Positions 28,958 to 63,994 of a DNA stretch of 64,000 bases are shown here, piece by piece; position 1 is the stretch's first letter, and each line of letters starts with the position of its first letter. Source of the DNA: Bacteroidales bacterium (GTDB lineage: Bacteria; Bacteroidota; Bacteroidia; Bacteroidales; UBA12077); contig JANQHR010000144.1 of NCBI GenBank assembly GCA_028282585.1, forward strand, positions 44,445 through 108,444, read 5' to 3'. The notes beneath the pieces were generated by a model that searched no databases, was not told where the DNA came from, and saw only the letters and a program-made list of their open reading frames with translations. Made by a program: the position numbers and the translations under genes.

Positions 28958-29062
28958 GCAAATTAGTAAATGGTAAATAGGTGAATTAGTATAATAAGAT
29001 AAAAGCGAATGTAACAAGTTATAATCTTTCAATATTACCAATTCACTATTTCACAAATTAGC
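28958..29062. repeat. Inverted microrepeat element (~8-nt units), no cargo gene
   Basis: Left arm GCAAATTA GTAAATG GTAAATAG GTGAATTA GTATAATA; right arm TATTACCA ATTCACTA TTTCACA AATTAGC is imperfectly complementary. Confidence 0.6.
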
Positions 29063-29134
29063 AATAATTAATAAATTTGTATTACAATAAACAAAAAGCT
29101 ATTATCGTTGGTTTAATTGTTAAATAAGGGCATT

Positions 29135-29812
29135 ATGAAAGTTATATTAGTGACTATATTATTTTTATTAACAATTGTTTTGTCTGGTTTCTCACAGGTT
29201 TTCCCGTTATTACCGAAATATTACCAACCTTTGGATTCTACAGTTTTAGGTAATAATAATGAGGAAGAACAAGAGAAAAAGGAAACTTTATTGAAACGAC
29301 ATGAAAAGGTTTTGTATTCTGTTGCAATGGGAACGGGATTTTCAAGTTTCGGTAATGATCTTTCAATGATGAATACTTATATTGCACCAACCGTTGATTA
29401 TCAGGTAAATTCCAAACTTAATGTTACTGTAACAGGCATTATAATGCAAAACAACTTTAATGGTTTAGAAGAATTTTATGGTAATGCTCCTGGATATTCA
29501 TACAGTTCAAATACATCAAATTATGGCATTTCAGGTACTGCTTATTATCAGTTAAATGATAAATGGAGTATATGGGGTGATGGGGCTTATCTGGAGAACC
29601 AATCCATATTTAACGATTATCGGGCTGACGCTTATGACAATGATTACAAAACTATTTCTTTGGGGGTGGGATACAAGATAAATGATAAAGTACAATTTCA
29701 TTTTCAATATAGATACTCGAATGGATTAAACCCGGCATATAATTATTCTTCACCTTTTTACAATAGGACATATAACCCTTACAGATCTAATTTCGATATT
29801 TGGGATTATTAA
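29135..29812 (+). CDS. Hypothetical exported protein, possible small outer-membrane beta-barrel
   Basis: Signal peptide from ATG 29135; alternating beta-strand patterns; TAAATTTG -7 box at 29072-29079. Confidence 0.7.
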   Translation: MKVILVTILFLLTIVLSGFSQVFPLLPKYYQPLDSTVLGNNNEEEQEKKETLLKRHEKVLYSVAMGTGFSSFGNDLSMMNTYIAPTVDYQVNSKLNVTVTGIIMQNNFNGLEEFYGNAPGYSYSSNTSNYGISGTAYYQLNDKWSIWGDGAYLENQSIFNDYRADAYDNDYKTISLGVGYKINDKVQFHFQYRYSNGLNPAYNYSSPFYNRTYNPYRSNFDIWDY

Positions 29813-30643
29813 ATGATCTGGTTTAAAGAAAATACTTATTTAATTACAGTAGTTCTTGTAATTATTAGTTTATCTGTAAAATCGCAAACTACAATTTCAC
29901 AATTCCCTGTATTTCAGCCTGACGAACGAATAACCTATTCTGCTGTATATAATTGGGGATTTATTTGGTTAAAAGCAGGAAAGGTTGAATTTAAAGTAAC
30001 GAAAACCAAATATAAGGATAACGAAGCATACCATTTAAATGCTTTTGGAACTAGTCTTCCATCTTATGATTGGTTATTTAAAGTTCGTGATTATTTTCAG
30101 TCATACGTGAGAACTGATAATTTAGCTCCATTATATTTTGATAGAAATACTTATGAAGGTGGATATTATGTCCAAAATCAGTTTATATTTAATTATAAGG
30201 ATAGTCTGATATATACCCAAACGCAAAATTCCAATAAACCATACTCTGAGGATACACTTAAAATGCAAAAGAATATTTACGATGTTATTTCAGGGGTATA
30301 TTATATAAGGAACCTTGATTTTGATAAATACGAAATTAACGATACTATTCCAGTTCGTATGATAATCGATAACGAAATATTTGATTTATATATCAGGTAT
30401 TTAGGGAAAGAAGTATTAAAAACTCATGACAAGCGAAAGTTCAATACCATAAAATTTTCTGCTCTGCTAGTTGAAGGAACCATATTCAAAGGGGGAGAGG
30501 ATTTATATGTTTGGGTAAGTGATGATTTAAATCGAATTCCAATACTTGTTGAGGCTAAAATATTGATCGGCTCTGTAAAAGCTACATTAGTTGGAATAGA
30601 AAATCAGAAGTTTCCGCTTTCTTCAGAAATAGTTCAAGAATAA
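29813..30643 (+). CDS. DUF3108 family exported protein
   Basis: YNWGFIW..AG, FKVRD, WVSDDLNRIP...A.I.IGSVKA.L. Confidence 0.85.
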   Translation: MIWFKENTYLITVVLVIISLSVKSQTTISQFPVFQPDERITYSAVYNWGFIWLKAGKVEFKVTKTKYKDNEAYHLNAFGTSLPSYDWLFKVRDYFQSYVRTDNLAPLYFDRNTYEGGYYVQNQFIFNYKDSLIYTQTQNSNKPYSEDTLKMQKNIYDVISGVYYIRNLDFDKYEINDTIPVRMIIDNEIFDLYIRYLGKEVLKTHDKRKFNTIKFSALLVEGTIFKGGEDLYVWVSDDLNRIPILVEAKILIGSVKATLVGIENQKFPLSSEIVQE

Positions 30644-30658
30644 TATATTAAATAATCG

Positions 30659-30694
30659 AATTGAAATGATAGTAAGGATTGTAATGATTGAAAA
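30659..30694. repeat. Left arm: four 9-nt repeats (GATTGTAAN-like)
   Basis: AATTGAAAT GATAGTAAG GATTGTAAT GATTGAAAA. Confidence 0.65.
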
Positions 30695-30745
30695 TTCTTG
30701 TTAAATTATAAAATGATATCTTTATAGAATACAATAACTTTTAAC

Positions 30746-31120
30746 ATGACAATGGAAGGCGATTGGGTAAAATTTAAAAAAGAACTAAGATAAAGGTTAA
30801 AGAAATTCGCTCTGGGAATTACTAGGTTAGTTCAGAACTTACCAAAAACTTCTGAAGCAAAAACTATAGGTAATCAGTTGTTAAAATCGGGAACTTCGAC
30901 TTATGCAAATTATAGAGCGGCTTTAAGAGGACGTTCAAAAGCAGAATTCTTTAGTAAATTATCTATCTCAGTTGAAGAAGCGGATGAAACTGAAATGTGG
31001 TTGGAAATATTAATAGAGTCAGAAATATCTAATGATCAGGAAACTATAAGACTGCATAAAGAAAGCTTCGAATTATTAAAAATTCTATCTCACCTAAGAA
31101 AAACTGTTGGAAATAAATAA
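30746..31120 (+). pseudogene. Four-helix-bundle protein (TIGR02436 / 23S rRNA IVP / bAvd-like) with an in-frame TAA
   Basis: MTMEGDWVKFKKELR*RLKKFALGITRLVQNLPKTSEAKTIGNQLLKSGTSTYANYRAA.RGRSKAEFFSKLSISVEEADETEMWLE; stop at 30791-30793. Confidence 0.88.
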
Positions 31121-31124
31121 TTAT

Positions 31125-31159
31125 TATTCAAACTCCACAATCCTCTTAATCTTTCAATC
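31125..31159. repeat. Right arm: 8-9-nt repeats complementary to the left arm
   Basis: TATTCAAAC TCCACAATC CTCTTAATC TTTCAATC. Confidence 0.65.
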
Positions 31160-31285
31160 TATCTAAGTTTAAAAAGAAATTAAAAATCAGATGGAAATCC
31201 CATGCTATAATTCCGAAGTTCATAAATTTTATACTAATTTTGCCGGAAATTGAAAAACAGTAATTCATAACTAAAATAGTTAATA

Positions 31286-32479
31286 ATGCATAACACGGTT
31301 AAGGTTACAGATAAAATTTACTGGCTTGGAGCCAATGATAGAAGAACACATTTATTTGAAAATATGTGGCCAATTCCAAATGGTGTTTCATACAACTCAT
31401 ATTTAATTATAGATGAAAAGATTGCTTTGGTCGATACTTTGGAGTTTGGCTCTTCCGATGATTATCTTGAAAAAATAGAAAATCTTATCGATGGAAAACC
31501 AATTGATTACCTAATTATTAATCATATGGAGCCAGATCATTCGGGAGCTGTTAAAACCATTGTTGAAAAATATCCTAATATTAAGTTAGTGGGTAATTTA
31601 AAGACATTCAAAATAGTCGATTCTTACTTTGGATATAAAGAAAAGCAATATCAGGTGGAAGATGGAGATGAGCTTAGCTTAGGACACCATAAATTAAAGT
31701 TTGTAATGACTCCCTGGGTACATTGGCCAGAAACAATGATGACATATGATTTAACAGAGAAAGTTTTATTTTCGGGTGATGCTTTTGGTACATTTGGTTC
31801 TTTAGATGGTGGAATATTCGATGATGAAATTGAGTTTGAAGAATACTATCAGGTTGAAATGCGCAGGTATTTCTCGAATATTGTGGGAAAGTACAGCAAC
31901 ATGGTTCAGAAAGCATTTAAAAAGCTGGAAGGGATTGATGTAAAATATATATGTGCAACTCATGGACCTATATGGAGAACAGATGTAAATAAGGTTTTAT
32001 CACTTTACGATAGATGGAGTAAATTCGAAGCAGAAAATGGTGTTGTTATTATTTATGGTTCAATGTATGGAAATACAGCTAAACTGGCAGATTGCATTGC
32101 TCGTAAGTTGTCTGAAGAAGGCATTAAGAGGATCAGAATTTATGATGCATCAAAAACTCACTTATCGTATTTGATTAATGAGATTTGGCAATATAAAGGT
32201 GTTATTCTAGGTAGTTGCGCATATAATTCTGGAATGTTACCAACAATGGAAAATTTAACAAGAAATCTTGAGCATATCGGTTTAAAGAATCGTTATTTAG
32301 GTGTATTTGGTTCTTATAGCTGGAATGGAGGAGGAGCAAAAGCTTTATTTAAATTTCAGGAAAATATGAATTGGGATTTAGTTGTTGATCCAGTTGATAC
32401 TAGAGGAATCCCGGGAAATGAATCATTTGAAAGATGTGAAACTATAGCGAAAGCAATGGCAGAGAAATTAAAAACATAA
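31286..32479 (+). CDS. fprA: Flavodiiron protein (A-type flavoprotein)
   Basis: HMEPDH, HWPE, GDAFG, THG diiron ligands and flavodoxin SMYGNT; TAATTTTG -7 box at 31235-31242. Confidence 0.95.
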   Translation: MHNTVKVTDKIYWLGANDRRTHLFENMWPIPNGVSYNSYLIIDEKIALVDTLEFGSSDDYLEKIENLIDGKPIDYLIINHMEPDHSGAVKTIVEKYPNIKLVGNLKTFKIVDSYFGYKEKQYQVEDGDELSLGHHKLKFVMTPWVHWPETMMTYDLTEKVLFSGDAFGTFGSLDGGIFDDEIEFEEYYQVEMRRYFSNIVGKYSNMVQKAFKKLEGIDVKYICATHGPIWRTDVNKVLSLYDRWSKFEAENGVVIIYGSMYGNTAKLADCIARKLSEEGIKRIRIYDASKTHLSYLINEIWQYKGVILGSCAYNSGMLPTMENLTRNLEHIGLKNRYLGVFGSYSWNGGGAKALFKFQENMNWDLVVDPVDTRGIPGNESFERCETIAKAMAEKLKT

Positions 32480-32500
32480 AATAAAAATTTATCAATTTAG

Positions 32501-32532
32501 AAAGGGCTTGAAATAATTCAACGCCCTTTTTT
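32501..32532 (+). terminator. Intrinsic terminator after fprA
   Basis: AAAGGGCTTGAA-ATAA-TTCAACGCCCTTT followed by a T tract. Confidence 0.75.
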
Positions 32533-32583
32533 ATTTGTTTCAAGAAGATTCTTTATTTTTATTGGCAGTAAAAAATAAAATAT

Positions 32584-32973
32584 ATGGATATTAATTTAAA
32601 TACAGGAATAACATATACAGCAACGCAAGTTGTTGAGAAAAAAGATACTGCAGCGGAGTATGGATCAGGCTTAGTTGAGGTTTTTGCGACTCCTGCGATG
32701 ATTGCTCTTATGGAAAACGCTGCTTTAAAAACAGTATTACCGTATCTGGGTGATGAATACAATACGGTTGGGTTTGAAGTTAATGTCAGACATTTAAAGC
32801 CAACACCAGTCGGAATGAAGGTTGAATGCACAGCAACTTTGATTGAAGTTGATGGAAAAAAACTGATTTTTTCTGTTACAGCAAATGATGAAGAAGGTAG
32901 GATCGGAGAAGGAACACATATACGTTACGTTATTAACTCAAAGAAATTCATGAATAAATTAAAACAAAAATAA
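32584..32973 (+). CDS. FlK-like hot-dog thioesterase
   Basis: [34 protein letters not shown]. Confidence 0.92.
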
Positions 32974-32979
32974 AATACT

Positions 32980-33612
32980 ATGACACGAAAATTGATCATT
33001 ACCCTATCTATCTTATTTACTGTTAATAATTTAATAGCTCAAGAATTAATAAAGCTTCCCGCTCCTCAAAAAACAGGAGGTATGCCTTTAATGCAAGCTT
33101 TAAATGAAAGAAGCTCAAGCCGGGATTTCATAGATAAAGATTTATCAGAACAACAACTGTCCAATTTATTATGGGCTGCATTTGGTATTAATAGAAAAGA
33201 TATAAAAAAACGAACTGCACCTACTTCTCAAAATAATCAGGATATTGAGATTTATCTAACGACAAAAAAAGGATTATTTCTTTACAAACCTGAAGAGCAT
33301 GCTTTAGAGAAAAAATCAGATAGAGATATTAGAGAAGTAACAGGCGAACAAGATTTTGTGAAAGCAGCTGCTGTAAACCTAGTCTACGTTTCAAATTTTA
33401 GTAAGTTAGGTGATAGTCCAATAGAGGTTAAAAGAATGATAGCTGCGACACACTCTGGATTTATTGGGCAGAACGTATACCTGTATTGTGCATCGGAAGG
33501 GTTAATTTCTGTGTTCAGAGCATGGATTGATAAAGATAAAATTAAAGAAGCGCTAAAATTACCAAAAGGGTTTGAAGTGATCTATAGTCAAACTGTTGGA
33601 TATTCTAAATAG
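32980..33612 (+). CDS. Exported nitroreductase / SagB-like FMN protein
   Basis: GGMPL..AL.ERSS.R, LLWAAFG.N, RTAP, QNVYL. Confidence 0.88.
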   Translation: MTRKLIITLSILFTVNNLIAQELIKLPAPQKTGGMPLMQALNERSSSRDFIDKDLSEQQLSNLLWAAFGINRKDIKKRTAPTSQNNQDIEIYLTTKKGLFLYKPEEHALEKKSDRDIREVTGEQDFVKAAAVNLVYVSNFSKLGDSPIEVKRMIAATHSGFIGQNVYLYCASEGLISVFRAWIDKDKIKEALKLPKGFEVIYSQTVGYSK

Positions 33613-33635
33613 TAATTTAAGGCAGTTAGCCAGTT

Positions 33636-34817
33636 ATGAAATACAATTTTGACAATATCATTAATAGGGAGAACACTGCTTCAGTTAAATATGATTTACG
33701 AAAGGAGATATTCCAGAAAGAAGATGTAATCCCAATGTGGGTTGCCGATATGGATTTTAAAACACCAGATTTTATTATCAAGGCTATAAAAGAAAGGTTA
33801 AATCACGAAGTATTTGGATATAGTATCCGGCCAAGATCATATTTTCAGTCTATTATTGATTGGGTAAAACGCAGGCATAATTGGGAAATTAAAGAAGAAT
33901 GGATATCATTTAGTCCTGGAATAGTACCTGCAATTAATATGGCTGTTCTGGCATATACAAGCCCAGGAGATAAAATTATAATACAACCTCCGGTTTATCA
34001 TCCGTTTTTTTATGCGATTAAAAATAATGATAGAGAATTAGTTGAGAATCCTTTAAATCTTAAAGGCGGAAGATATCATATGAATTTTAAGGATTTAGTT
34101 GATAAACTGAGAGATGCAAAGATGTTAGTTCTTTCTAATCCCCATAATCCGGGAGGTTCAGTTTGGACAAAAGATGAGTTAGAAAAACTGGGAGAGCTAT
34201 GCGTTAAGTACAACGTATTGATAATGTCCGACGAGATTCATGCTGATTTGATTTACAAAAACTACCGTTATACACCATTAGCTTCGATATCAAGTGAGAT
34301 TGCAAATCATACAGTTACATTTATTGCTCCTAGCAAGACTTTTAATATGGCTGCTTTAGCTACCTCCTCTGTTATTTCATCAAACAAAGAATTAAAGGAA
34401 AAGTATGATAAAGTTCTGGATGCCATTCATATTGGAATGGGAAACGTATTTGGAACAGTAGCATCAGAGGCTGCATATACACATGGAGATAAATGGCTCG
34501 ATCAGCTTATGGAGTACTTAGAAACGAATCTGGACCTGGTAGAAGATTATTTAAAAGAAAAAGTACCACAAATAAAAATGATTCGCCCGGAAGGAACTTA
34601 TTTGGTTTGGCTTGATTGTTCCGATTTAAACTTAAAAGGGAAAGATTTAAAAGATTTTATGATTAAAGATGCAGGTTTAGGCTTTAATGATGGAAGGATG
34701 TTTGGTACGGGTGGTGAGGGTTATATGCGAATGAATATCGCTTGTCCCAAACAAATTGTTTTAGATGCTTTAATAAGATTGGAGAAGGCAATTAGTAATC
34801 ATAATTCGAATGTCTGA
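33636..34817 (+). CDS. PatB/MalY family PLP-dependent C-S lyase
   Basis: PMWVADMDF, NPHNPGG, SDEIHAD, APSKTFN. Confidence 0.93.
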   Translation: MKYNFDNIINRENTASVKYDLRKEIFQKEDVIPMWVADMDFKTPDFIIKAIKERLNHEVFGYSIRPRSYFQSIIDWVKRRHNWEIKEEWISFSPGIVPAINMAVLAYTSPGDKIIIQPPVYHPFFYAIKNNDRELVENPLNLKGGRYHMNFKDLVDKLRDAKMLVLSNPHNPGGSVWTKDELEKLGELCVKYNVLIMSDEIHADLIYKNYRYTPLASISSEIANHTVTFIAPSKTFNMAALATSSVISSNKELKEKYDKVLDAIHIGMGNVFGTVASEAAYTHGDKWLDQLMEYLETNLDLVEDYLKEKVPQIKMIRPEGTYLVWLDCSDLNLKGKDLKDFMIKDAGLGFNDGRMFGTGGEGYMRMNIACPKQIVLDALIRLEKAISNHNSNV

Positions 34818-35151
34818 TAAGGGTTTTGAAATTAAAGTTTTAATTCCAACAGAGGATGGAATTACTATTTCTGAGAATAATTTAGATGAAGTTAAATATT
34901 ATTTAATGTATAATATTAGTAACAGAAGTTATCAGTTAGCAGGTAAAACAAAAGTTGCTGCGTTATTAGCCGAAGGAGAATTTGGAGATAATCTGGCTCA
35001 ATGGATTGCAAAAGAAAAATTGGATATAGTCGTTTCTAAATCTGATATAAGTAACATTGGAATAAGGAAAAGAAAACCGATGCACGATGATATAGGGGAT
35101 GAGTTGAATTTGCTAATAGATATGATAGATCAAAAAAAGGAGCTTATTTAG
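34810..35151 (+). CDS. Hypothetical protein, N-terminus weakly NifB/NifX-like
   Basis: Overlaps the patB stop codon; KVLIPTEDGITISE...YYLMYNI. Confidence 0.55.
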   Translation: MSDKGFEIKVLIPTEDGITISENNLDEVKYYLMYNISNRSYQLAGKTKVAALLAEGEFGDNLAQWIAKEKLDIVVSKSDISNIGIRKRKPMHDDIGDELNLLIDMIDQKKELI

Positions 35152-35162
35152 CTCCTTTCTTA
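35134..35162. terminator. Bidirectional terminator between convergent genes
   Basis: AAAGGAGCT-TATTT-AGCTCCTTT. Confidence 0.7.
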
Positions 35163-35197
35163 ATTTAAGGTGTATTTTTATTATACTATATTCTATT

Positions 35198-36946
35198 CTA
35201 TTCTTCTTCTTCACCCACTTCGTTTTCGTCTTCATCATCATCCAGAGCCGAAACCAAACCTCCAGTTAATTTACCATCCATTTTTTTTATGAAGCTTTCC
35301 TGTTGCTTTTTTAAACGTTCATATTCTTCAACTTTTTTCTCAAGTTCGGCTTCACGGCGTGCAGATTCTTCTTGAGTAGCTTGTAATTCTTCCATATTTT
35401 GACGCATTTCCTCTTCTTGGGCACGCATTTCTTCTGCTTGTTGTCTGGTTCTTTCAAGAAGTTCAGATGTTCTAATGTTTACCTTAACCGTAGATAATGT
35501 TGAAGCAATGTTTTCACCAATTTTTTCTACAAATTCAATTTGATATTTTTCAAATTCTCTGAAAGAAGCCATTTCTATAACTCCATATACTTGATCATTT
35601 ACAACCAATGGAACAATTAAAATACTTTTCGGATTGTCATCACCTAAACCCGAAGTAATAGTAATATAATCATTAGGAATATCTGTAATATAAATTGTTT
35701 CTGCTTCTTGTATTGCTCTTCCTACCAAACCAACACCCATTTCTATCTTTTTCTCAAGAAATTTTTTACGATTAAAAGCATAAGCAGAAGCCATTTCAAT
35801 GAACTTATTGTTTTCATCATCATCATTTATAACAAATAAACCTCCTTGATTAGCGTCACAATATTTTACCAGATTACTAATAACATCATAAGAAAGCTTC
35901 TCTATATTATCGTTATTCTGTCTTAAAATGTCACTGAATTTAGCAATACCTTGTGATGCCCAGTTTCTTTGGTCGTCTTCTTTTTTTCTCCTTTTTTCTT
36001 CTTGTGTTGCATGCTTAAGGTTAGTGCGCATTTCCAATAATGCATTTCCCAGATCATCTTGCTCGCTTAATGGCACAAAAGGACTATCAAAATTACTTTT
36101 TCCAATTTCTATTGAGAAATCGGTTGTTTCCTTCAATCCCCTGATTAAAGCATTTAAGGCAGCAGCCATTTCTCCAATTTCATCGTTTCGTTCCTTTATT
36201 TGTTTATTAGGCATTACGCCTTGTCCCATTTGAATTAAGTTGTTCTTTATCTTTATAATTGGTTTTATAATAAGTTGAGCTAATATAAGTGCTATTATAA
36301 CTGAAATTATAACAACCACAACACCAGCCATAAAAATGAAGTCCTCAAGACTTTTAAATGATTCTTCCATTTGGGCACTGGCTTCTTCAATTTTTGTCTC
36401 ATGGATATTAGTTAAGTTAGTAAGATCTTCTATTAATTTATCACTTAATACAATAATATCACCACCTTTTTCAACTTTCGTATATACATCTGTCATTAAT
36501 AAGAAAAAATCATCATAACTTTCCATTGTACTTAGCTTATTCATTATGTCCTGGTGCATCGGAAATAAAGTGTCTGTAATGGAAACATAAATTTTTTCAT
36601 AAGCTTCTATTTCGGTGGGATCCCAATTTATTGATATTTCTAAGATTTTATCGTTTAAGTCAGGGATTTCAGTTTGATGTAAATCAATTAACTTCTTTTT
36701 ATCTGGAGTATCTGGTTGTTTCTCGATGTAAACCCAATTTTTAATTAACATTTTTGATGAAATCATAGCGTTTGATAATTCACGAACCAGGTCGGCAGAA
36801 GGAATATGAACACTAATGATTTCTTCGTTTTTTTCAATGCTTTTAGTTAAAGTATTATTTACAAGATAAATATTTCCGAATATGGCTGCAGTAACAATAC
36901 CAAATCCAAGAACTAGCTTTTTTGCAATGGTAAATTTGAATTTCAT
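35198..36946 (-). CDS. Membrane sensor: periplasmic helical domain, HAMP, GAF and coiled coil, with no output domain
   Basis: Two TM helices, HAMP (RNDEIGEMAAALN), GAF (GLVGRA..E, IVPL...VYGVIEMAS), QAEEMRAQEEEMRQNMEELQATQEE, acidic tail. Confidence 0.88.
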   Translation of the reverse strand: MKFKFTIAKKLVLGFGIVTAAIFGNIYLVNNTLTKSIEKNEEIISVHIPSADLVRELSNAMISSKMLIKNWVYIEKQPDTPDKKKLIDLHQTEIPDLNDKILEISINWDPTEIEAYEKIYVSITDTLFPMHQDIMNKLSTMESYDDFFLLMTDVYTKVEKGGDIIVLSDKLIEDLTNLTNIHETKIEEASAQMEESFKSLEDFIFMAGVVVVIISVIIALILAQLIIKPIIKIKNNLIQMGQGVMPNKQIKERNDEIGEMAAALNALIRGLKETTDFSIEIGKSNFDSPFVPLSEQDDLGNALLEMRTNLKHATQEEKRRKKEDDQRNWASQGIAKFSDILRQNNDNIEKLSYDVISNLVKYCDANQGGLFVINDDDENNKFIEMASAYAFNRKKFLEKKIEMGVGLVGRAIQEAETIYITDIPNDYITITSGLGDDNPKSILIVPLVVNDQVYGVIEMASFREFEKYQIEFVEKIGENIASTLSTVKVNIRTSELLERTRQQAEEMRAQEEEMRQNMEELQATQEESARREAELEKKVEEYERLKKQQESFIKKMDGKLTGGLVSALDDDEDENEVGEEEE

Positions 36947-37054
36947 ATCTTGCTATTTGAATTAGATTTTAAGAGTTTCTAAGATAATAATATAATTTTA
37001 AGTTAGGTTCATTTAAACCATATTTTATCAAATCAGGCTACGAATGTAAATAAT

Positions 37055-37813
37055 CTATTCAATAAATGTATTAAGATCATATGTAATATTTGTTAAAAAT
37101 AATCCATGAGCAGGTGCTGAAGTTCCTGCATCCGATCGATTCCTATTTTCAATTATTTGAATAAAACCTTCTAAGGTAGTTTTGTGTTTTCCAATGTCAA
37201 TTAATGTACCAACAATTGCTCGAACCATATTCCTTAAAAAACGATCCGCTGTTATTGTAAAAGATAACTTATAACTATCCTTTTCCCACAAAGCACTTTC
37301 AATTCTACAATTATTGGTTTTAACATCGGTATGCAATTTACTAAAACTTGTAAAATCCGTGAACTGAAGTAGTAATTCACATGCTTTATTCATTAAATCA
37401 ATATCTAATTTATGAGGTAAATAATACGAAGATTCGGTTAAAAACGGATCTTTTTGTTGATGTATAAAATAGTGGTATGTCCTGCTAGTCGCATCGAAGC
37501 GGGCATGGGCTTCATTATTTACTTTAAGTATCTTATGGATAGCTATATCATGGGGTAAAAGGCTATTGATATTGAACATGAACTTTTTATCCTTATCCAA
37601 ATCATTACATTTCGAATCAAAATGTGCTACAAAGTAGCTTGCATGAACACCAGTGTCTGTTCTTCCGGCACCGGTTATTTCAACTTCCTCCCTTAAAATA
37701 GTTGAAAGAGTTTTTGTTAAAACTTCTTGGATGGTAATTGCGTTAGGCTGGATTTGCCAACCATGATAATTTGTTCCTTTATAACTTAATTGAATAAAAT
37801 ACCTGTTTTTCAT
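37055..37813 (-). CDS. truA: tRNA pseudouridine(38-40) synthase
   Basis: YHGWQIQ, GAGRTDTGVHA, FLRNMVR, APAHGL; minus-strand TAACTTTG -7 box at 37833-37840. Confidence 0.97.
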   Translation of the reverse strand: MKNRYFIQLSYKGTNYHGWQIQPNAITIQEVLTKTLSTILREEVEITGAGRTDTGVHASYFVAHFDSKCNDLDKDKKFMFNINSLLPHDIAIHKILKVNNEAHARFDATSRTYHYFIHQQKDPFLTESSYYLPHKLDIDLMNKACELLLQFTDFTSFSKLHTDVKTNNCRIESALWEKDSYKLSFTITADRFLRNMVRAIVGTLIDIGKHKTTLEGFIQIIENRNRSDAGTSAPAHGLFLTNITYDLNTFIE

Positions 37814-38033
37814 GTTGCAATTTTAGTGCTTACAAAGTTAAGATTTAAACTTGAAAATACTATATAATCTATGTTTCTTGATATTTGATTCTTATAATTT
37901 CTTAAAAAGATTTAACAGTTTTTAACATTTAAATAGACTATTATTGTGCTGATTTTATAAGAACAGAAGTAGAATTATTACAATTATTTTTTAACCTAAA
38001 ATTTTTATGTATCTTTTCAAAAATTATTAGACT

Positions 38034-39029
38034 ATGAACGAAACAGTTGATGTTAAAGAGCTGAACGAGCGAATAGAGAAGGAAAGTTCATTTGTTGATA
38101 TGATTAAAATGGAAATGGGCAAGGTAATAGTTGGGCAAAAACACCTTGTTGATTCTCTTTTAATTGGTTTTCTTTCCGATGGACATATTTTATTAGAAGG
38201 TGTTCCTGGATTGGCAAAAACATTGGCAATTAATACTTTAGCAAGTGTTGTAGATGCTGATTTTAGTCGTATTCAATTTACACCGGATTTGTTACCAGCA
38301 GATTTAATTGGTACAATGATTTATAGCCAAAAGAAAGAAGAATTCCAGGTTAAAAGAGGTCCCATTTTTACTAATTTTGTTTTGGCCGATGAGATTAACC
38401 GTTCTCCTGCAAAAGTACAAAGTGCTTTATTAGAGGCAATGCAGGAACGCCAGGTTACAATTGGTGAAGAAACATATCAACTTCCACAACCGTTTTTAGT
38501 AATGGCAACGCAAAATCCAATCGAGCAAGAAGGAACTTATCCTCTTCCGGAAGCACAAGTTGACCGTTTTATGTTAAAAGTTGTAGTTGACTATCCTAAA
38601 TTAGAGGAAGAGAAGTTAATTGTTCGAGAAAATATTGCCAAAGAATTTCCAAAGGCTAATACTATTCTTAAACCTGAAGACATTGTTAATGCAAGAAATG
38701 TTGTTAAGGATGTTTATATTGACGAAAAAATTGAGCGATATATATTAGATATAGTATTTGCTACCAGATTTCCTGAAAAATACAATCTGGAGAAATTTTC
38801 TGCAATGATTAATTACGGCGGATCTCCTCGTGCAAGTATTAATTTGGCAATGGCTTCGAAAGCTTACGCATTTATTAAGCGAAGAGGTTATGTTATTCCT
38901 GAAGATGTGCGCGCTGTTTGTCATGATGTATTACGTCATAGGATAGGATTAACATATGAGGCCGAGGCAGAAAATGTAACTACAGAGGATATTATTACGG
39001 AAATTCTTAATACTATAGAAGTTCCATAA
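38034..39029 (+). CDS. moxR: MoxR AAA+ ATPase
   Basis: GVPGLAKT, RIQFTPDLLPAD, DEINR, ATQNPIEQEGTYPLPEAQ.DRF. Confidence 0.96.
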   Translation: MNETVDVKELNERIEKESSFVDMIKMEMGKVIVGQKHLVDSLLIGFLSDGHILLEGVPGLAKTLAINTLASVVDADFSRIQFTPDLLPADLIGTMIYSQKKEEFQVKRGPIFTNFVLADEINRSPAKVQSALLEAMQERQVTIGEETYQLPQPFLVMATQNPIEQEGTYPLPEAQVDRFMLKVVVDYPKLEEEKLIVRENIAKEFPKANTILKPEDIVNARNVVKDVYIDEKIERYILDIVFATRFPEKYNLEKFSAMINYGGSPRASINLAMASKAYAFIKRRGYVIPEDVRAVCHDVLRHRIGLTYEAEAENVTTEDIITEILNTIEVP

Positions 39030-39047
39030 AAGTTACATATCTCAAAA

Positions 39048-39464
39048 ATGAAAAAAATAATTGTACTTCTGTTAATTGTAATTTCGAGCTTAAACGTTCT
39101 TGGACAAAGTTTTGTAGGTAAACATAAGCTGGAGATCAAAAAAGAGATGAAAGAAAATCATAGAGATTTTTACTTTTCTAAAGAAGTAATGGGAAAAAGC
39201 AATTTCATCAAATTTGAAGATACCGATGGATACCGAACATACTTATTTGTTTTGGATGAGGATGGATATTGTAAATATCACATGTTAATGTGCGATTATA
39301 GTTTGCTAAAACATACGATCGATTCATTAAACCAAAACTATGAGTATAAAGAAAATTTAACATGGTACGATTATGTGTCAGGGAAAGAAAATTTTGTTAT
39401 AAGAATAAAAAAAGAAGAATGGTATTTTTCTGTAATTACTAAGAAGCTCGAAGAGAAAGATTGA
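39048..39464 (+). CDS. Hypothetical exported protein within the bat operon
   Basis: 138-aa ORF with signal peptide, tightly spaced between moxR and DUF58. Confidence 0.7.
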   Translation: MKKIIVLLLIVISSLNVLGQSFVGKHKLEIKKEMKENHRDFYFSKEVMGKSNFIKFEDTDGYRTYLFVLDEDGYCKYHMLMCDYSLLKHTIDSLNQNYEYKENLTWYDYVSGKENFVIRIKKEEWYFSVITKKLEEKD

Positions 39465-39485
39465 TGTATAACCAATAAAATAGAA

Positions 39486-40370
39486 TTGGGCGTGGAAGCT
39501 TCAGAACTGCTTAAGAAAGTACGAAAAATTGAGATTAAAACACGGGGCTTATCAAAAAACATATTTGCAGGTGAATACCATAGTGCATTTAAGGGTCGGG
39601 GTATGGCCTTTAGTGAGGTTAGAGAATATCAATACGGAGATGATATTCGAAATATTGACTGGAACGTAACTGCCCGATTTAATCATCCATATATTAAAAT
39701 ATATGAAGAGGAGCGTGAACTTACAGTTATGTTGCTTGTCGATGTAAGCAATTCGCGCGTGTTTGGTTCACAAACTCAATTAAAGAAAAACCTTATTACT
39801 GAAATCTCAGCTGTTTTATCTTTTTCAGCAATCCAGAATAATGATAAGATTGGAGTAATCTTATTTAGTGATAAAGTTGAAAAATTTATTCCTCCCAAAA
39901 AAGGAAGGACTCATATTTTGAGAATTATAAGAGAATTAATCGAATTTACTCCGGAAAATAAAGAAACAGACATTTCAGAAGCACTTAGGTATTTGACCAA
40001 TGCCATTAAAAAAAGAAGTACTGCATTTTTAATTTCTGATTTCATTGATGATGAGGAAGGAACTCCTCGATTTGATGAAGCTATTCGAATTGCAAACAGA
40101 AAACATGATATTATTGGTTTAAAGATATTTGATGAAAGGGAACGAGAAATTCCGCCAGTTGGTATAGTTAGAATGAAAGATGCCGAAACCGGTGAATATG
40201 CATGGGTTGATACTACGAGTATTACTTTACGAAGAAATTATGCTAGTTGGTATAAAACTATGGAAGAATCTGTAAATGATACTTTGGTTAGAGCAGGAGT
40301 TGATTTCGTATCTATAGCAACAAATGAAGATTATGTTAAACCATTAATTAACCTTTTTAAAAAGCGATAA
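39486..40370 (+). CDS. DUF58 (VWA-like) protein
   Basis: GEYHSAFKGRGMAFSEVREY..GDD.R.IDWNVTAR, DVSNS; start is TTG 39486 or GTG 39492. Confidence 0.93.
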   Translation: MGVEASELLKKVRKIEIKTRGLSKNIFAGEYHSAFKGRGMAFSEVREYQYGDDIRNIDWNVTARFNHPYIKIYEEERELTVMLLVDVSNSRVFGSQTQLKKNLITEISAVLSFSAIQNNDKIGVILFSDKVEKFIPPKKGRTHILRIIRELIEFTPENKETDISEALRYLTNAIKKRSTAFLISDFIDDEEGTPRFDEAIRIANRKHDIIGLKIFDEREREIPPVGIVRMKDAETGEYAWVDTTSITLRRNYASWYKTMEESVNDTLVRAGVDFVSIATNEDYVKPLINLFKKR

Positions 40371-40375
40371 AAAAT

Positions 40376-41401
40376 ATGTTGCGGAAAGCGAAATTTTATA
40401 TTGTATATTTATTAGTTTTTGGTTTAATGCATTTTACATTTAAATCAAATGCTCAGCATATAACAGTTAAGGCAAAATTAGATACAACGGAGTTTCTTAT
40501 TGGAGACCAGATTGGATTGGAGCTTGAGGTTAGGCAACCAATTAAGGAGTTTGTTGGAATTCCAATTTTTGAGCAAAATGTTAATCAGGAACTAGAAGTA
40601 TTAGAGCAATCGGAGAATGATACAACCTTGCTAGAAACAGGACACTTTATTATCAGGAAACGACTGTTGGTTACAGCTTTTGATTCGGGTTACTACGCTT
40701 TACCACCAATACCGTTTTTATATTATAGTGATACTTTAAGAACTGACCCAATTTTATTTCATGTAAAAACTATTCCTGTAGATACATCACAGGCAATTAA
40801 GGATATTAAAAGACCATACGGAGCACCTTTGAGTTTTGCTGAAGTATTTCCCTGGGCAGGAGGAAGTCTTATTCTAGCTCTAGTGATTTTTATTCTTATT
40901 TATGTTATAAAAAAATTAAGGCGAAAAGAACCGATTATCCGTAGGATAAAACCAAGAGAACCTGCTCATATTATTGCGTTTAGAGGTTTAGAGAAACTAA
41001 AGAAAGATAAGCTTTGGCAACAAGAAAAGATTAAAGAATATTATACCGACCTTACCGATATTCTTCGATTATATCTTTGGAATCGTTATTCAATAAGAAC
41101 ATTAGAAAGAACTAGTGAGGAAATTTTAGAATCTCTAGAGATTTCCGATTTTAATGATGAAGAAGCATATGATATTTTAAAAGATGTTTTCCAGGTATCG
41201 GATTTGGTAAAGTTCGCTAAATTTAAACCAATTGCAGATGAACATGAAAAATGTTTATCTGGGGCATACAATTTTGTGGATAGAACCAAATTAATCATTG
41301 AAGAAAAGAAAGATGCTGAAGAAGATAAAAAGGATAATAATAGCTCTTTAAATTCTGAAAATGAAGAAGTAAAAATGCTGGAAGAACAAAGTAATCCGTA
41401 A
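40376..41401 (+). CDS. Bat-operon membrane protein (BatD-like N-terminus)
   Basis: IGDQ, AFDSG, TM helix, YY..LTDILR.Y, DLVKFAK; conserved position before batA. Confidence 0.82.
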   Translation: MLRKAKFYIVYLLVFGLMHFTFKSNAQHITVKAKLDTTEFLIGDQIGLELEVRQPIKEFVGIPIFEQNVNQELEVLEQSENDTTLLETGHFIIRKRLLVTAFDSGYYALPPIPFLYYSDTLRTDPILFHVKTIPVDTSQAIKDIKRPYGAPLSFAEVFPWAGGSLILALVIFILIYVIKKLRRKEPIIRRIKPREPAHIIAFRGLEKLKKDKLWQQEKIKEYYTDLTDILRLYLWNRYSIRTLERTSEEILESLEISDFNDEEAYDILKDVFQVSDLVKFAKFKPIADEHEKCLSGAYNFVDRTKLIIEEKKDAEEDKKDNNSSLNSENEEVKMLEEQSNP

Positions 41402-41422
41402 ATGATTATTTGAAATTTTATT

Positions 41423-42415
41423 ATGAACAATATAACATTTGCAAATCCGAATTTATTATACTTGCTATTAATTATTATGCCGGTTATAGCCTGGTACGTG
41501 TTAAATCATAAAAAAACACATGCAAGTATACAGGTATCAACAATAAAGGGGATTGGGAAAAACCACATAACATACAAACACATTTTAAGACATGTTGTAT
41601 TTGCTTTAAGAGTAATGACAATATCATTAATTATAATTGCTATTGCTCGTCCGCAGTCAACGTTAAGTTGGAAAAATCAAGAATCGGAAGGAATTGACAT
41701 TGTATTAGCTTTGGATATTTCAAGTAGTATGTTAGCCCGAGATTTTGAACCGGATAGATTAGAAGCTGCAAAAGATTTAGCGATACAGTTTATAGCAGGG
41801 CGAAGAAATGATCGTATTGGATTAGTAGTTTTTAGTGGTGAGAGTTTTACACAATGCCCCTTAACAACAGATCATTCGGTTTTAATTAATCTATTTAGAG
41901 ACATTCAAAGTGGTATGATTGAAGACGGTACTGCAATTGGTATGGGTTTGGCAACATCTGTTAGCAGAATAAAAGACAGTGATGCAAAAAGTAAAGTAAT
42001 TATCTTATTAACAGATGGTGTTAATAATCAAGGGGCAATTGCTCCTGCAACTGCTGCCGAACTGGCTCAAACATTTGGAATAAGAGTATATACTATTGGA
42101 GTTGGAACCGAAGGTATGGCACCATATCCAATACAAACTCCATTTGGAACTCAGTTAAGAAATATGCCTGTTGAAATTGATGAAGAAACATTACAAGATA
42201 TTGCTAATAAAACTGGAGGAGAATATTTTAGAGCAACAGATAATGACAAACTAAAACAGATTTATGAACAAATTGATCAATTAGAGAAGACCAAAATCGA
42301 AGTAAAAGAATTTAGTCAAAAGGATGAGGAATTTTTGATTTTTGTTTTAATTGCTGCTCTATTGTTATTATCCGATATAATATTAAGAAATACATTATTA
42401 AGACAAATACCTTAA
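41423..42415 (+). CDS. batA: BatA VWA-domain protein
   Basis: FANP.LL, ARPQ, MIDAS DISSSM, LLTDG. Confidence 0.93.
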   Translation: MNNITFANPNLLYLLLIIMPVIAWYVLNHKKTHASIQVSTIKGIGKNHITYKHILRHVVFALRVMTISLIIIAIARPQSTLSWKNQESEGIDIVLALDISSSMLARDFEPDRLEAAKDLAIQFIAGRRNDRIGLVVFSGESFTQCPLTTDHSVLINLFRDIQSGMIEDGTAIGMGLATSVSRIKDSDAKSKVIILLTDGVNNQGAIAPATAAELAQTFGIRVYTIGVGTEGMAPYPIQTPFGTQLRNMPVEIDEETLQDIANKTGGEYFRATDNDKLKQIYEQIDQLEKTKIEVKEFSQKDEEFLIFVLIAALLLLSDIILRNTLLRQIP

Positions 42416-42418
42416 ATA

Positions 42419-42498
42419 ATTTAAGGTATCAGGTTTCAAATTTTAAATTTACGTTATGTTTGTTGAAATCTGGAATATTAAATTGAAACGAATTGAAT
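42419..42498. repeat. Inverted microrepeat element (7-nt units), no cargo gene
   Basis: ATTTAAG GTATCAG GTTTCAA ATTTTAA on the left; TTGAAAT CTGGAAT ... TTGAAAC on the right. Confidence 0.5.
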
Positions 42499-42499
42499 T

Positions 42500-43537: not shown

Positions 43538-43539
43538 TT

Positions 43540-60598: not shown

Positions 60599-60637
60599 AA
60601 AAGGCTCAAATTATAAATTTTTATAAATGAGCCTTTT
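60599..60637. terminator. Bidirectional terminator
   Basis: AAAAGGCTCA...TGAGCCTTTT between convergent genes. Confidence 0.7.
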
Positions 60638-60653
60638 ACTATTTTAGTTTAAG

Positions 60654-62492: not shown

Positions 62493-62598
62493 ATTATATC
62501 TTTTTAATTTATTAAAATAGGAGTATAAAGATATTATTTCAGCGTAAAAGATGCAATTAGGAAGGTTATTAATACTTTAAATTGTAAATCAAATATAG

Positions 62599-62606
62599 TA
62601 CCTTTG
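62599..62606 (+). promoter_or_regulatory. -7 promoter box
   Basis: TACCTTTG matches TAnnTTTG, about 135 nt before the saccharopine dehydrogenase start. Confidence 0.5.
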
Positions 62607-62742
62607 ATACTTATGACAATGCAAAGAGAGTATATCATTAAATTCCTGAATAGATTTAACGGATTGTAATAAATAACTATTTATCAGAAATCTACACAAC
62701 CTTAAATTAAATCAATTATAATTTTCCAAATTAATTAAAAAA

Positions 62743-63876
62743 ATGAAAAAAATAATCATACTAGGTGCTGGCATGGTTGGTAAAGCTATGGCCATTGACT
62801 TATCTAAAGAGTATAAAGTAAAATCGGTTGATATTGATCAGGAATCATTAAGTTATCTTTCAAATAACTATGGTATTGAAACAGAAGCTTTGGATGTAAC
62901 TAATGAGGAGCTATTGTTTGAAGCAATTAACGATTTTGATCTGGTTATTTCCGCAGTTCCTGGATTTCTGGGGTTACAAACAATTAAAAATGTAATTAGG
63001 AATAAAAAAGATTTGGTTGATATTTCTTTCCTACCGGAAGGTGTTTTACATCTGGATGATATGGCAAAAGAATATGGAGTAACAGTTATTATGGATTGTG
63101 GTGTTGCTCCGGGAATGCCAAATATTGTGGCCGGATATCATAATGAAATTATGAAAATCGAAAATTTCGAATATATGGTGGGTGGATTACCAAAGATTAG
63201 AAGTTTTCCATTTGAGTATAAGGCACCGTTTTCACCATGTGACGTAATTGAAGAATATACGCGCCCTGCACGTTACGTGGAAAATGGTAAAGAAATTGTA
63301 AAACCAGCAATGAGCGATACAGAATTAATAGAATTTAAGGAAGTAGGGACGCTTGAGGCATTCAATTCCGATGGTTTAAGATCATTGATATATACCTTAA
63401 ATGATATACCTAATATGAAAGAGAAAACTTTGCGCTATCCAGGACATATAAAAATGATCCAGGCATTAAAAGCTGCAGGCTTTCTTGATTATGAACCGAT
63501 GAAATTAAAAGGACAGGAGTTTATTCCTTTTGAAATCACTTCGGAGATTTTATTTAAAGCATGGAAATTAAATCCTGAGGATCATGAATTTACAATCATG
63601 CGTATTGTTCTAATAGGAGAAGAGAATGGAACTAAAAAAGAGATTATTTATGATCTTTATGATAAATATGATCCAATCGAAAAGATTTCTTCAATGGCTA
63701 GAACTACAGGCTTTACAGCAACTGCAGCGGCTGATATGATTTTAAATAATGTATTTAATGAAAAGGGTATGTTTCCTCCAGAACTTGTGGGAAAAAACCC
63801 AGAGTGTTATAAATATATTTTAAAGTATTTAAAGGAACGAAATATAAACTATATTAGAACCGATAAGAATTTATAG
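62743..63876 (+). CDS. Saccharopine dehydrogenase / lysine 6-dehydrogenase family protein
   Basis: LGAGMVG, CGVAPG, VGGLP, EEYTRP, EKTLRYPGH, SMARTTG. Confidence 0.92.
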   Translation: MKKIIILGAGMVGKAMAIDLSKEYKVKSVDIDQESLSYLSNNYGIETEALDVTNEELLFEAINDFDLVISAVPGFLGLQTIKNVIRNKKDLVDISFLPEGVLHLDDMAKEYGVTVIMDCGVAPGMPNIVAGYHNEIMKIENFEYMVGGLPKIRSFPFEYKAPFSPCDVIEEYTRPARYVENGKEIVKPAMSDTELIEFKEVGTLEAFNSDGLRSLIYTLNDIPNMKEKTLRYPGHIKMIQALKAAGFLDYEPMKLKGQEFIPFEITSEILFKAWKLNPEDHEFTIMRIVLIGEENGTKKEIIYDLYDKYDPIEKISSMARTTGFTATAAADMILNNVFNEKGMFPPELVGKNPECYKYILKYLKERNINYIRTDKNL

Positions 63877-63897
63877 AAATGGGGGTGTCCAAAAAGT

Positions 63898-63994
63898 CTT
63901 GGTGTTCTTTGTGCCTGCTTTGTGAAACTTTGTGGTATAATTATAAAAGGCTGTTAAACAGAGAACCACAAAGAAAACATAAAGTTACTCAAAG
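63898..63994. repeat. Inverted microrepeat element (CTTTGTG / CACAAAG units), at window edge
   Basis: CTTGGTG, CTTTGTG x3 on the left; CAGAG, CACAAAG, CATAAAG, CTCAAAG on the right. CTTTGTGGT (63928-63936) and ACCACAAAG (63965-63973) pair perfectly. Confidence 0.75.

Follow-up and report, generated by a model that had tools for sequence, protein, structure and literature searches.

Inverted arrays of short degenerate words in intergenic spacers of a Bacteroidales genome, with and without a four-helix-bundle gene

Four intergenic sites in the window

The window, a stretch of 64,000 nucleotides from contig JANQHR010000144.1 of a Bacteroidales bacterium (assembly GCA_028282585.1), holds four intergenic sites at which an array of short degenerate units is paired with an array of complementary units (Table 1). 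Inverted complementarity had been predicted at four places from the letters alone, and it is present at all four, each opening 4–22 nt past the stop of a + strand ORF (ends at 28952, 30643, 42415 and 63876 for sites 1, 2, 3 and 4), as was also claimed. The unit lengths were borne out as well: units recur every 8 nt at site 1 and every 11–12 nt at site 4, and in the left arms of sites 2 and 3 every 9 and 7 nt, respectively. The four sites are real in architecture, yet unequal in kind.

Table 1. Positions of the arms, genes and repeats at the four sites, in window coordinates
Feature	Position	Strand	Remarks
Site 1 left arm	28958..28991	+	degenerate ~8-nt units, period 8, match fraction 0.58
Site 1 right arm	29031..29065	+	complementary units
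8-nt direct repeat, left copy	30649..30656	+	border of a 465-nt stretch absent from one metagenome contig
Site 2 left arm	30659..30697	+	about four 9-nt units, period 9, match fraction 0.74
TIGR02436/PF05635 four-helix-bundle gene, probable pseudogene	30746..31120	+	HMM match, in-frame TAA 30791-30793
8-nt direct repeat, right copy	31114-31121	+	start of site 2 right arm
Site 2 right arm	31121..31160	+	complementary units; kept in deletion variant
Site 3 left arm	42417..42439	+	7-nt units, period 7
Site 3 right arm	42463..42485	+	complementary; next gene from 42500
Site 4, repeat copy ended by contig end	63881..64000	+	~163-nt dispersed MITE-like repeat
Site 4 left terminal inverted repeat	63881-63897	+	from alignment of 13 copies
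Site 4 left array	63898-63937	+	followed by loop
Site 4 right array	63962-63996	+	past loop

Site 2 is an old, decaying TIGR02436 cassette with degenerate arms and a protein ORF on either side (29813-30643 and 31286-32479). The four-helix-bundle (FHB) gene that the original prediction placed inside it matches both families (30794-31120; TIGR02436 81.2 bits, cut-off 24; PF05635 55.8 bits, cut-off 33.8), but a TAA at codon 16 had been overlooked and the reading frame is not intact. The orthologue in one relative (G023) has a sense codon at this position and reads through, and its left arm is longer and more regular. The arms in the window form a stem that is 78% complementary (30675-30692 / 31127-31144). 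No rRNA match was found in the window, and site 2 is not inside a 23S rRNA helix. One metagenome contig, ~95% identical, skips 30649-31113 and joins 30648 to 31114, with 8 letters that fit both sides (run X5); this variant is without the left arm and the gene, and a solo right arm remains. Deletion between short direct repeats can strip a cassette of its gene and one arm. Among 20 loci of the same spacer in the genus, the cassette is present in 3 (with the gene inverted in one; an antisense cassette occurs in one relative, G018), 10 are 79–116 nt long without arrays, 3 carry gene-less array hairpins, 1 carries a MITE-like insert, and 3 were not assigned a state.

Site 3 is a gene-less hairpin, whose left arm begins 2 nt past the stop at 42415 within a co-directional gene pair. 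Its stem (42418-42439 / 42463-42484) is 77% complementary, and its fold reaches -14.3 kcal/mol on the + strand versus -6.1 on the - strand. We fetched 24 loci of this spacer from the genus, of which 21 included both flanking genes, and found spacers of 2 to 171 nt (2 nt in one relative). Heptamer-array hairpins with differing words occur in most of these spacers (by eye, about 12 of the 21 loci have two-armed arrays and about 4 have solo ones), and some of the arrays are closely like the right arm of an FHB cassette, C116:69505. A gene was found within none of the 21 spacers, so gene-less hairpins need not be emptied cassettes. Covariation between the orthologues was modest (p = 0.004), in genomes that are kin and therefore not independent.

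Site 1 is a weak gene-less hairpin, common only to close relatives. The left arm begins 6 nt past the stop of a 745-aa ORF, the arms are 70% complementary over 28962-28991 / 29036-29065, and the best stem (28958-28987 / 29031-29062) has a score of 28. Contigs that are ~90% identical carry one extra 8-nt unit in the right arm, after 29044 (runs X2 and X4), and the left arm is 13 letters shorter in run X9. Its words are similar to those in GTGANNN-type arms, which border an FHB cassette as well as gene-less hairpins in three relatives (G020, G003 and G001).

Site 4 differs in kind, being a high-copy repeat with a single consensus, bounded by terminal inverted repeats (TIRs), around a GxxExxY-type array-hairpin core. 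Both the window and the contig end inside it, at base 64000. The claim that the sites are not single-consensus repeats fails here, as site 4 matches, at 90–100% identity, a dispersed repeat found at 35 loci, 16 of them at least 140 nt long; sites 1–3 have no further copy elsewhere in the genome. Median identity among the 16 full copies is 94.5% (range 76–100%), the aligned copies share 17-nt inverted ends, and no target-site duplication is evident in their aligned flanks. Site 4 end pairs that lie 0.4–3 kb apart, as in a parent insertion sequence, hold ordinary genes and no transposase. The arms of site 4 are 70% complementary (63907-63933 / 63958-63984) and include a perfect 9-mer (63928-63936 / 63965-63973), and its inner array can be aligned to one that precedes a GxxExxY gene, with identity at 36 of 47 positions and a score that none of 300 shuffles attains. 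Such high-copy relatives of the modules break assemblies, with 20 of the 35 loci of this family at contig ends.

Taken one by one, the arms in the window are near chance level, and the evidence for them is comparative. The AT-rich background had been named as a source of chance matches, and the per-site shuffle controls are weak: the observed best-stem score was reached by 36, 24, 3 and 9 of 300 dinucleotide shuffles at sites 1 to 4, respectively, and RNA fold z-scores were -2.38, -1.66 and -1.28 at sites 1, 3 and 4. Periodicity stands out in two of the eight arms, the left arms of sites 2 and 3 (reached by 0.007 and 0.002 of intergenic windows), and in the remaining six it is reached by 0.065–0.67 of such windows. 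Sites 1, 3 and 4 are all below the threshold of a genome-wide hairpin scan, and no Rfam family matched in the window. The sites had been described as unlike ordinary terminators, which agrees with a search of 28000-44000 that found nine intrinsic terminators (GC-rich stem and T run), none of them at sites 1–3 (28953-29075, 30644-30745, 31121-31200 and 42416-42499).

Cassettes and gene-less hairpins across the genome

A profile search of the genome gave 20 HMM matches, corresponding to 18 TIGR02436 loci, and 5 matches corresponding to 4 GxxExxY loci. The original prediction had called for a test of enrichment around both gene families, and by inspection complementary arrays flank all 18 TIGR02436 and all 4 GxxExxY loci. 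Flanks of the same cassette pair better than swapped flanks (Mann-Whitney, Watson-Crick pairs only, p = 1.1e-7 and 2e-6), with only 5 of 22 cassettes above the 95th percentile of cross pairs, and 10 of 44 arms exceed the 95th percentile of intergenic windows in periodicity (p = 3e-9), with periods of 7–8 dominant. Duplex energy discriminated poorly between cassettes and the flanks of random ORFs. The arms are far more regular in relatives (23 loci from 27 matches in G001, G003 and G020). Of nine cassettes folded as RNA, eight exceeded their flank-shuffled versions in stability by 2.3–6.7 sd, the exception being the copy in the window (-83.2 vs -81.7 +/- 3.7).

The 22 cassettes sit between ORFs, mostly with gaps of 40–150 nt, and are co-oriented with the upstream ORF in 21 of 22 cases and with the downstream ORF in 21 of 21. 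The same four pairs of cassettes, at different loci, rank highest in both protein identity (62–82%) and arm similarity; gene and arms have been copied together to new sites. The arms of C116:70485 recur in three ~100-nt gene-less elements (on C131, C120 and C45), so that this arm type has three gene-bearing and three gene-less copies in the genome, with homology that stops sharply at the outer arm edges. Arms gain and lose whole units. Judging from sequence divergence, the protein of at least one cassette is under purifying selection, with a median dN/dS of 0.13 across 96 pairs of one orthologous cassette.

When orthologous loci were aligned, as the original prediction proposed, the same spacers turned out to differ in state (filled, inverted, absent, gene-less and partly deleted), and presence at a given spacer varies between species. 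Its notion of full and emptied copies holds in that filled and gene-less copies coexist, but the one loss event observed leaves a solo right arm rather than two empty arms. The proposed scan for chains of short words, at a loose threshold, yielded no enrichment, with 117 reverse-complement loci compared with 132 that were reverse-only, 98 that were complement-only and 125 that were direct; it recovered only 3 of the 22 known cassettes. Gene-less hairpins with periodic arms are enriched genome-wide, with 21 vs 2–5 in six shuffles, as are hairpins of all kinds (140 vs 39–56). Overall, the observation behind the prediction is confirmed in part, and its interpretation is likewise supported in part.

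One could argue that site 2 alone belongs to the cassette family and that the four sites were grouped by eye, with sites 1 and 3 as ordinary AT-rich hairpins (due to chance, or mRNA stem-loops grown locally by slippage) and site 4 as an unrelated MITE. We hold this to be unlikely, in spite of the weak per-site shuffle and fold scores, the six arms no more periodic than intergenic background, the failure of sites 1, 3 and 4 in the hairpin scan, the single-copy status of sites 1–3, the spacer of site 3 being gene-free at all 21 loci, and the single consensus of site 4. The spacers of site 3 in relatives hold heptamer arrays, some of them like the right arm of C116:69505, periodic-arm gene-less hairpins exceed their shuffled controls, the inner array of site 4 aligns with a GxxExxY upstream array, and site 1 shows both a unit-sized indel in relatives and GTGANNN-type words like those of FHB cassette arms.

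A proposed family of palindromic modules

We consider it rather likely that these sites represent a family of transposase-free palindromic modules, kin to the intervening sequences (IVS) of 23S rRNA that bear an ORF. Each module would consist of two inverted arrays of degenerate 7–11-nt words, with words that differ between module lineages, and would occupy the short spacer of a co-directional gene pair in one of two forms, either a gene-less hairpin of ~60–110 nt or a cassette of ~0.5 kb whose loop carries one TIGR02436 or GxxExxY gene. The module would be transcribed with its host operon, the two arms would then form a long, imperfect stem in the RNA, with the cargo looped out, and RNase III, for which the genome has a gene, may cut the stem as it does in ORF-bearing 23S rRNA IVS. 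Such cutting would render an insertion into an operon tolerable. No RNA run was found to contain the stretch. Pairing in RNA or ssDNA was part of the original prediction, and the tests for G:U asymmetry were null: G:U-tolerant scores were equal for sense and antisense (Wilcoxon p = 0.91), and duplex energies favored the sense strand in 23 and the antisense in 21 of 44 cassettes. Covariation between orthologues of the C79-type cassette was absent (p = 0.27), and the antisense cassette of G018 also counts against this reading. We infer that the arms probably pair in the transcript.

If the arms act instead at the DNA level, as ssDNA or cruciform hairpins for a trans-acting recombinase (of the Y1/HUH, IS200/IS605 or RAYT kind, or other), then RNA pairing would be a by-product. 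This would agree with G:U pairing without strand asymmetry, with the sharp ends of the multi-copy gene-less elements, with the one inverted cassette in a relative, and with 5' arms that are richer in G than in C in 39 of 42 informative cassettes, a property that reads the same on both DNA strands. The genome also has four matches to Y1_Tnp, and on C116 one lies 1.3 kb away from an FHB cassette, but these genes are flanked by short GC-rich REP-like hairpins rather than AT-rich word arrays. A purely DNA-level element has no need to sit in sense orientation within operons, as 21 of 22 cassettes do, and 23S IVS are processed as RNA according to PMC4990558. We consider the DNA-level explanation quite improbable.

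Another explanation, in our view a doubtful one, is that the arrays are putative binding sites in RNA or DNA for the encoded protein, with a word specific to each lineage and gene-less hairpins as further targets, serving autoregulation or spread; words that differ between cassettes yet follow the protein lineage (in the top four pairs), mildly basic proteins (pI 8–9.5 in 11 of 12), purifying selection on the protein, and words shared by gene-less and gene-bearing copies in the same genome are in line with it, but common descent alone accounts for protein and arms going together, the overall correlation is weak by Mantel test (observed value reached in 90 of 2000 permutations), and many arms in the genome are too degenerate for repeated sites.

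Beyond the module family itself, a bolder extension, which strikes us as a long shot, is that the FHB and GxxExxY proteins are one half of a two-part system and the word-array hairpins the other, in which each protein lineage would recognize its own 7–11-nt word on folded RNA or ssDNA and spread would be transposase-free, via host enzymes such as RNase III, replication slippage and template switching. Gene-less hairpins in operon spacers would then be distributed targets of the protein, 23S rRNA IVS would be only one niche, and the 5'-G-rich / 3'-C-rich handedness of the arms may stem from the way the element is read or copied.

Both TIGR02436 and GxxExxY are families of small proteins, very common, of unknown function and with numerous paralogues in each genome. 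Should they prove to be cargo of a transposase-free palindromic insert that colonizes operon spacers, then three long-standing puzzles would be united, namely gene-bearing rRNA IVS, the unexplained intergenic hairpins of short tandem repeats, and both protein families, and hairpins within transcripts may affect mRNA processing and operon polarity. In this genus, filled, inverted, deleted, gene-less and absent states of the same spacers occur naturally, which makes the question experimentally approachable.

Comparison with known systems

In the literature we found no paper on this class of repeat-armed modules, and in the genome they are not linked to any transposase or reverse transcriptase. 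The short tandemly repeated repetitive (STRR) heptamers of heterocystous cyanobacteria are, like the arrays here, tandem heptanucleotide units in intergenic DNA, but they are described as direct arrays, not paired inverted ones around a gene. The accessory protein Avd (bAvd) of diversity-generating retroelements (DGRs) belongs to a four-helix-bundle fold family related to PF05635, but the reverse transcriptase profile PF00078 has no match in this 98%-complete genome, and the cassettes lie outside any DGR context. REP/BIME elements with their RAYTs are, like the modules, small intergenic palindromes inside operons, and Y1_Tnp genes are present in the genome, but the arrays are unlike the hairpins that flank these genes and are without a single consensus.

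Correia elements are co-transcribed and processed by RNase III. MITE-like palindromes of this sort resemble the site 4 family in its TIRs, its length of ~163 nt and its 35 loci, and the gene-less hairpins in being ~100 nt long, multi-copy and intergenic; Correia/NEMIS, ERIC and RUP are so listed, as bacterial MITE-like intergenic palindromes, in PMC3184786. The modules differ from them in that a search of this genome for a cognate transposase sharing their ends found none, their arms consist of words in tandem instead of a single unique inverted repeat, and some copies carry a non-transposase gene.

The 23S rRNA IVS of Coxiella burnetii, Leptospira and others share with the cassettes a PF05635/TIGR02436 protein in the loop, an ORF bordered by stem-forming terminal inverted repeats, a size of about 0.45–0.5 kb, and an ORF that may decay while the element stays. 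In Coxiella, as described in PMC4990558, the S23p ORF lies between terminal inverted repeats that form a 28-bp stem, within which RNase III cuts, and tandem heptamers in strain-variable number precede the ORF, comparable to the word arrays of the cassettes. RNase III cutting of the modules would be analogous. The modules occur between protein genes of operons, not in a 23S helix, their arms are whole arrays on both sides with words that differ from copy to copy, and there are 18 copies in this genome, along with gene-less forms and a second cargo family, GxxExxY. Finally, PMC4990558 reports the Coxiella ORF as probably not expressed, whereas at least one cassette protein here is under purifying selection.

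Four array hairpins in the window

The original prediction held that four intergenic sites in the window may be filled and emptied copies of a transposase-free cassette system; the observation is partly confirmed and the interpretation partly supported, with its strength residing in the comparative data and not in the four sites themselves. Each site lies in a short spacer downstream of a + strand gene, begins 4–22 nt past the stop codon, as claimed, and displays the inverted complementarity described for it, with the proposed unit periods borne out (8, 9, 7 and 11–12 for sites 1, 2, 3 and 4, respectively). The four-helix-bundle (FHB) gene said to be enclosed at site 2 is recognizable as a TIGR02436/PF05635 match, but is interrupted by an in-frame TAA at codon 16. 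When judged singly, the sites are weak: the best-stem score was equalled by 36, 24, 3 and 9 of 300 dinucleotide shuffles (sites 1 to 4), RNA fold z-scores of single sites ranged from -1.3 to -2.4, and periodicity rose above intergenic background in just 2 of the 8 arms. No terminator-like sites were found at sites 1–3, Rfam returned no matches at the gathering threshold across the whole window, and a look-up of RNA runs containing the stretch listed none.

Site 4 has the proposed architecture, but it is a single-consensus, high-copy element bounded by 17-nt terminal inverted repeats (TIRs). It belongs to a repeat of ~163 nt that has 35 loci, with a median identity of 94.5% over the 16 loci of at least 140 nt, and 20 of the 35 touch a contig end in this 4.89-Mb assembly (173 contigs, 31.9% G+C). 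Both ends of contig C49, whose final 64 kb make up the window and which stops at window base 64000, carry this dispersed repeat, and it breaks the assembly there. Other elements share its ends and have different hairpin cores, and the 13-nt end motif was counted 121 times on one strand orientation and 100 times on the opposite one (at most 2 mismatches); shared ends with varied cores suggest that small elements with such TIRs form a superfamily. A parent insertion sequence was searched for and not found. Aligned with the array that precedes a GxxExxY gene, the inner array of the repeat is identical at 36 of 47 positions, a score that none of 300 shuffles reached.

Coordinates of array hairpins and associated features (contigs belong to the host genome, GCA_028282585.1, unless a relative is named)
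Feature	Coordinates	Description
Site 1	window 28958-29065	array hairpin
Motif beside site 1	window 29070-29100	conserved in orthologous spacers
Site 2	window 30659-31160	cassette
FHB gene of site 2	window 30746-31120	TIGR02436/PF05635 match
Site 3	window 42417-42485	array hairpin
Site 4	window 63881-64000	dispersed repeat at contig end
Left TIR of site 4 repeat	window 63881-63897	17 nt, with the 13-nt end motif
Site 4 repeat, other contig end	C49:1-34	dispersed repeat
Same-end elements, different cores (117-160 nt)	C49:17243-17360, C5:3533-3651, C105:15501-15624, C35:21404-21535	13-nt end motif
Cassette cluster	C116:65187-79904	four FHB cassettes
Y1_Tnp gene in cluster	C116:72112-72450	
Common 50-nt stretch	C4:45973-46094, C108:1-120	beside GxxExxY gene
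GC-rich hairpin within arrays	C4:12506-12560	
L069, repeated array	relative G003, C7:41390-41710	array - ORF - same array - inverted array
L039, opposite-strand cassette gene	relative G018	flanked by orthologues of the window's genes at 29813-30643 and 31286-32479

A family of cassettes in the host genome

The host genome carries 18 TIGR02436 loci (from 20 HMM matches) and 4 GxxExxY loci, and inspection of the flanks by eye revealed, at all of them, a series of short words upstream and the complementary series downstream, with words that vary between loci. Seven of the 18 TIGR02436 loci, the window copy included, look disrupted, either by stops or by being split over two frames. The flanks of a given cassette, i.e. 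one of these genes between two inverted arrays (arms), are more complementary to each other than flanks swapped among cassettes (p = 1e-7 and 2e-6), with only 5 of the 22 cassettes above the 95th percentile of swapped-flank pairs, and 10 of 44 arms exceed the 95th percentile of intergenic-window periodicity (p = 3e-9), periods of 7–8 being the commonest. In three genus relatives, the arms are far more regular (23 loci viewed, of 27 matches). Cassettes share the strand of the upstream ORF in 21 of 22 cases and that of the downstream ORF in 21 of 21, and the gaps to these ORFs, mostly 40–150 nt, are largely taken up by the arms; cassettes are therefore wedged sense-wise into operons. The arms also have a handedness. 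Among 44 cassettes (host contigs and loci L056-L082 of relatives), the 5' arm contained more G than C in 39 of 42 informative cases, and the 3' arm more C than G in 31 and the reverse in 7. As a property of inverted repeats, the handedness is identical on both DNA strands; it might arise because Rho would be drawn to a C-rich arm transcribed ahead of its partner and left unpaired.

Several layouts stood out individually. A 15-kb portion of contig C116 contains four FHB cassettes and a Y1_Tnp gene. The end of C4 and the start of C108 have a 50-nt stretch in common (98% identical) beside a GxxExxY gene, which represents either two cassette copies or an assembly overlap. At L069, the upstream array is repeated in direct orientation after the gene, ahead of the complementary arm.

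Evidence for copying comes from comparing proteins and arms. Median protein identity among 15 full-length FHB paralogues is 24%, and the 4 closest pairs (62–82%), which occupy different loci, are also the top 4 by arm similarity. One trio (C116:70485, C91:68061 and C4:12186) shares an arm type that recurs in 3 gene-less elements of ~100 nt on C131, C120 and C45, and homology between gene-bearing and gene-less copies begins and ends abruptly where the arms do on their outer sides; similarity of the short loops of these 3 elements to the cassette gene was not evident in alignment. By sequence comparison, the unit is copied both with and without its gene. A genome-wide scan found 140 hairpins, versus 39–56 in six shuffles, including 21 short-loop hairpins with periodic arms, versus 2–5. 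The word-chain scan suggested with the original prediction was run at a looser setting, on three 6-mers allowing 1 mismatch at most and then three reverse complements inside 700 nt. It gave no excess over reverse-only, complement-only and direct controls, and missed 19 of the 22 cassettes, recovering 3; a stricter version (core GC at least 2, at least 7 copies) returned 20 candidate loci versus 5 and 1.

Two candidate movers were considered and rejected. Y1 (RAYT) transposase genes are present, but the hairpins flanking them are GC-rich, unlike the arrays, and for a reverse transcriptase the genome holds no PF00078 match.

Orthologous spacers in relatives

Genus-wide conserved gene order surrounds sites 1 and 2, and the site 2 spacer was compared at 20 genus loci, 17 of which were assigned a state. 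The cassette is present at 3 of the 20, in the host, in G023 (81% protein identity; long, regular arms of 9-nt units) and in G018. A further 3 loci (G001, G020 and G003) carry a gene-less hairpin with GTGANNN-type heptamer arms, a word type also seen at an FHB cassette elsewhere in G020; the spacer is array-free, at 79–116 nt, at 10 loci, and has a MITE-like insert at 1. In the G018 copy (L039), the gene is on the strand opposite its neighbours and arm polarity is unchanged; either the whole palindromic unit was inverted or the insertion was a separate one. In public metagenome contigs, the site 2 cassette is kept in three relatives at ~90% identity, and a 541-nt contig of ~95% identity (depth 3.9, from one run only) joins 30648 to 31114, thereby losing the left arm and the gene and retaining the right arm; the lost stretch runs from one copy of an 8-nt direct repeat to the other.

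For site 3, 24 genus loci were fetched, and both flanking genes were found at 21. The spacer measures 2 nt in one of these and 28–171 nt in the others, and in most is made up of a pair of complementary heptamer arrays or of one array alone, with species-dependent words; a gene within the spacer was found at none of the 21. Pairing was better between left and right halves taken from one genome than in chimeras (p = 0.004, on related genomes that are not independent). Given the arrays in relatives' spacers and the better same-genome pairing, site 3 is a real gene-less member, which need not ever have carried a gene. Short GC-rich hairpins occur inside the array hairpins in the site 3 spacers of four relatives' loci (L114, L119, L121 and L131) and on host contig C4; they resemble those beside Y1 transposase genes, and look like nested REP-like elements.

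Site 1 spacers of relatives were judged by eye from printed spacer ends. On this reading, a comparable hairpin exists only in the host and its closest relative, G004; the spacer is minimal in most genomes and holds different inserts in others. In ~90% identical contigs, the right arm carries an extra 8-nt unit or the left arm lacks 13 nt. Downstream of the hairpin and closely upstream of a 231-aa gene lies a short motif, conserved in the orthologous spacers L027-L045, that resembles the Bacteroidota -7 promoter element, TAnnTTTG.

Proposed RNA pairing and place among known systems

A proposed model in which the arms pair in RNA rests on the operon-sense bias, the extra fold stability, the presence of RNase III, which the host genome encodes, and the Coxiella intervening sequence. 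When whole-cassette RNA was folded for 9 cassettes, 8 were 2.3–6.7 sd more stable than their counterparts with shuffled flanks; site 2 of the window was the exception. The Coxiella element, as described in PMC4990558, encodes a protein of the same family, has a 28-bp terminal stem in which RNase III cuts, and bears variable tandem heptamers upstream of the ORF. Covariation between orthologues, which is absent or modest, counts against the RNA model: pairing of own versus cross arms in 16 orthologues of the C79 cassette was not significant (p = 0.27), and the signal at site 3 is the modest one. Also against the model, G:U asymmetry, used as a test of RNA pairing, was null both by alignment scoring (Wilcoxon p = 0.91) and by duplex energy (23 vs 21, of 44). 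Two other measures were set aside. Duplex energy separated cassette flanks poorly from those of 1500 random ORFs, since energies are low in AT-rich arms, and the long-range pair count in the MFE fold did not discriminate, although fold energies did. At the protein level, one widely shared cassette has a median dN/dS of 0.13 over 96 pairs, and its product is under purifying selection; cassette proteins are mildly basic in 11 of 12 copies.

In literature outside subscription journals, cassettes beyond rRNA were not found described as a class. Among known systems, the nearest counterparts are ORF-bearing intervening sequences of 23S rRNA and intergenic palindromes of the MITE-like kind; the cassette family departs from the former by failing their defining location, and from the latter by being without a transposase link.
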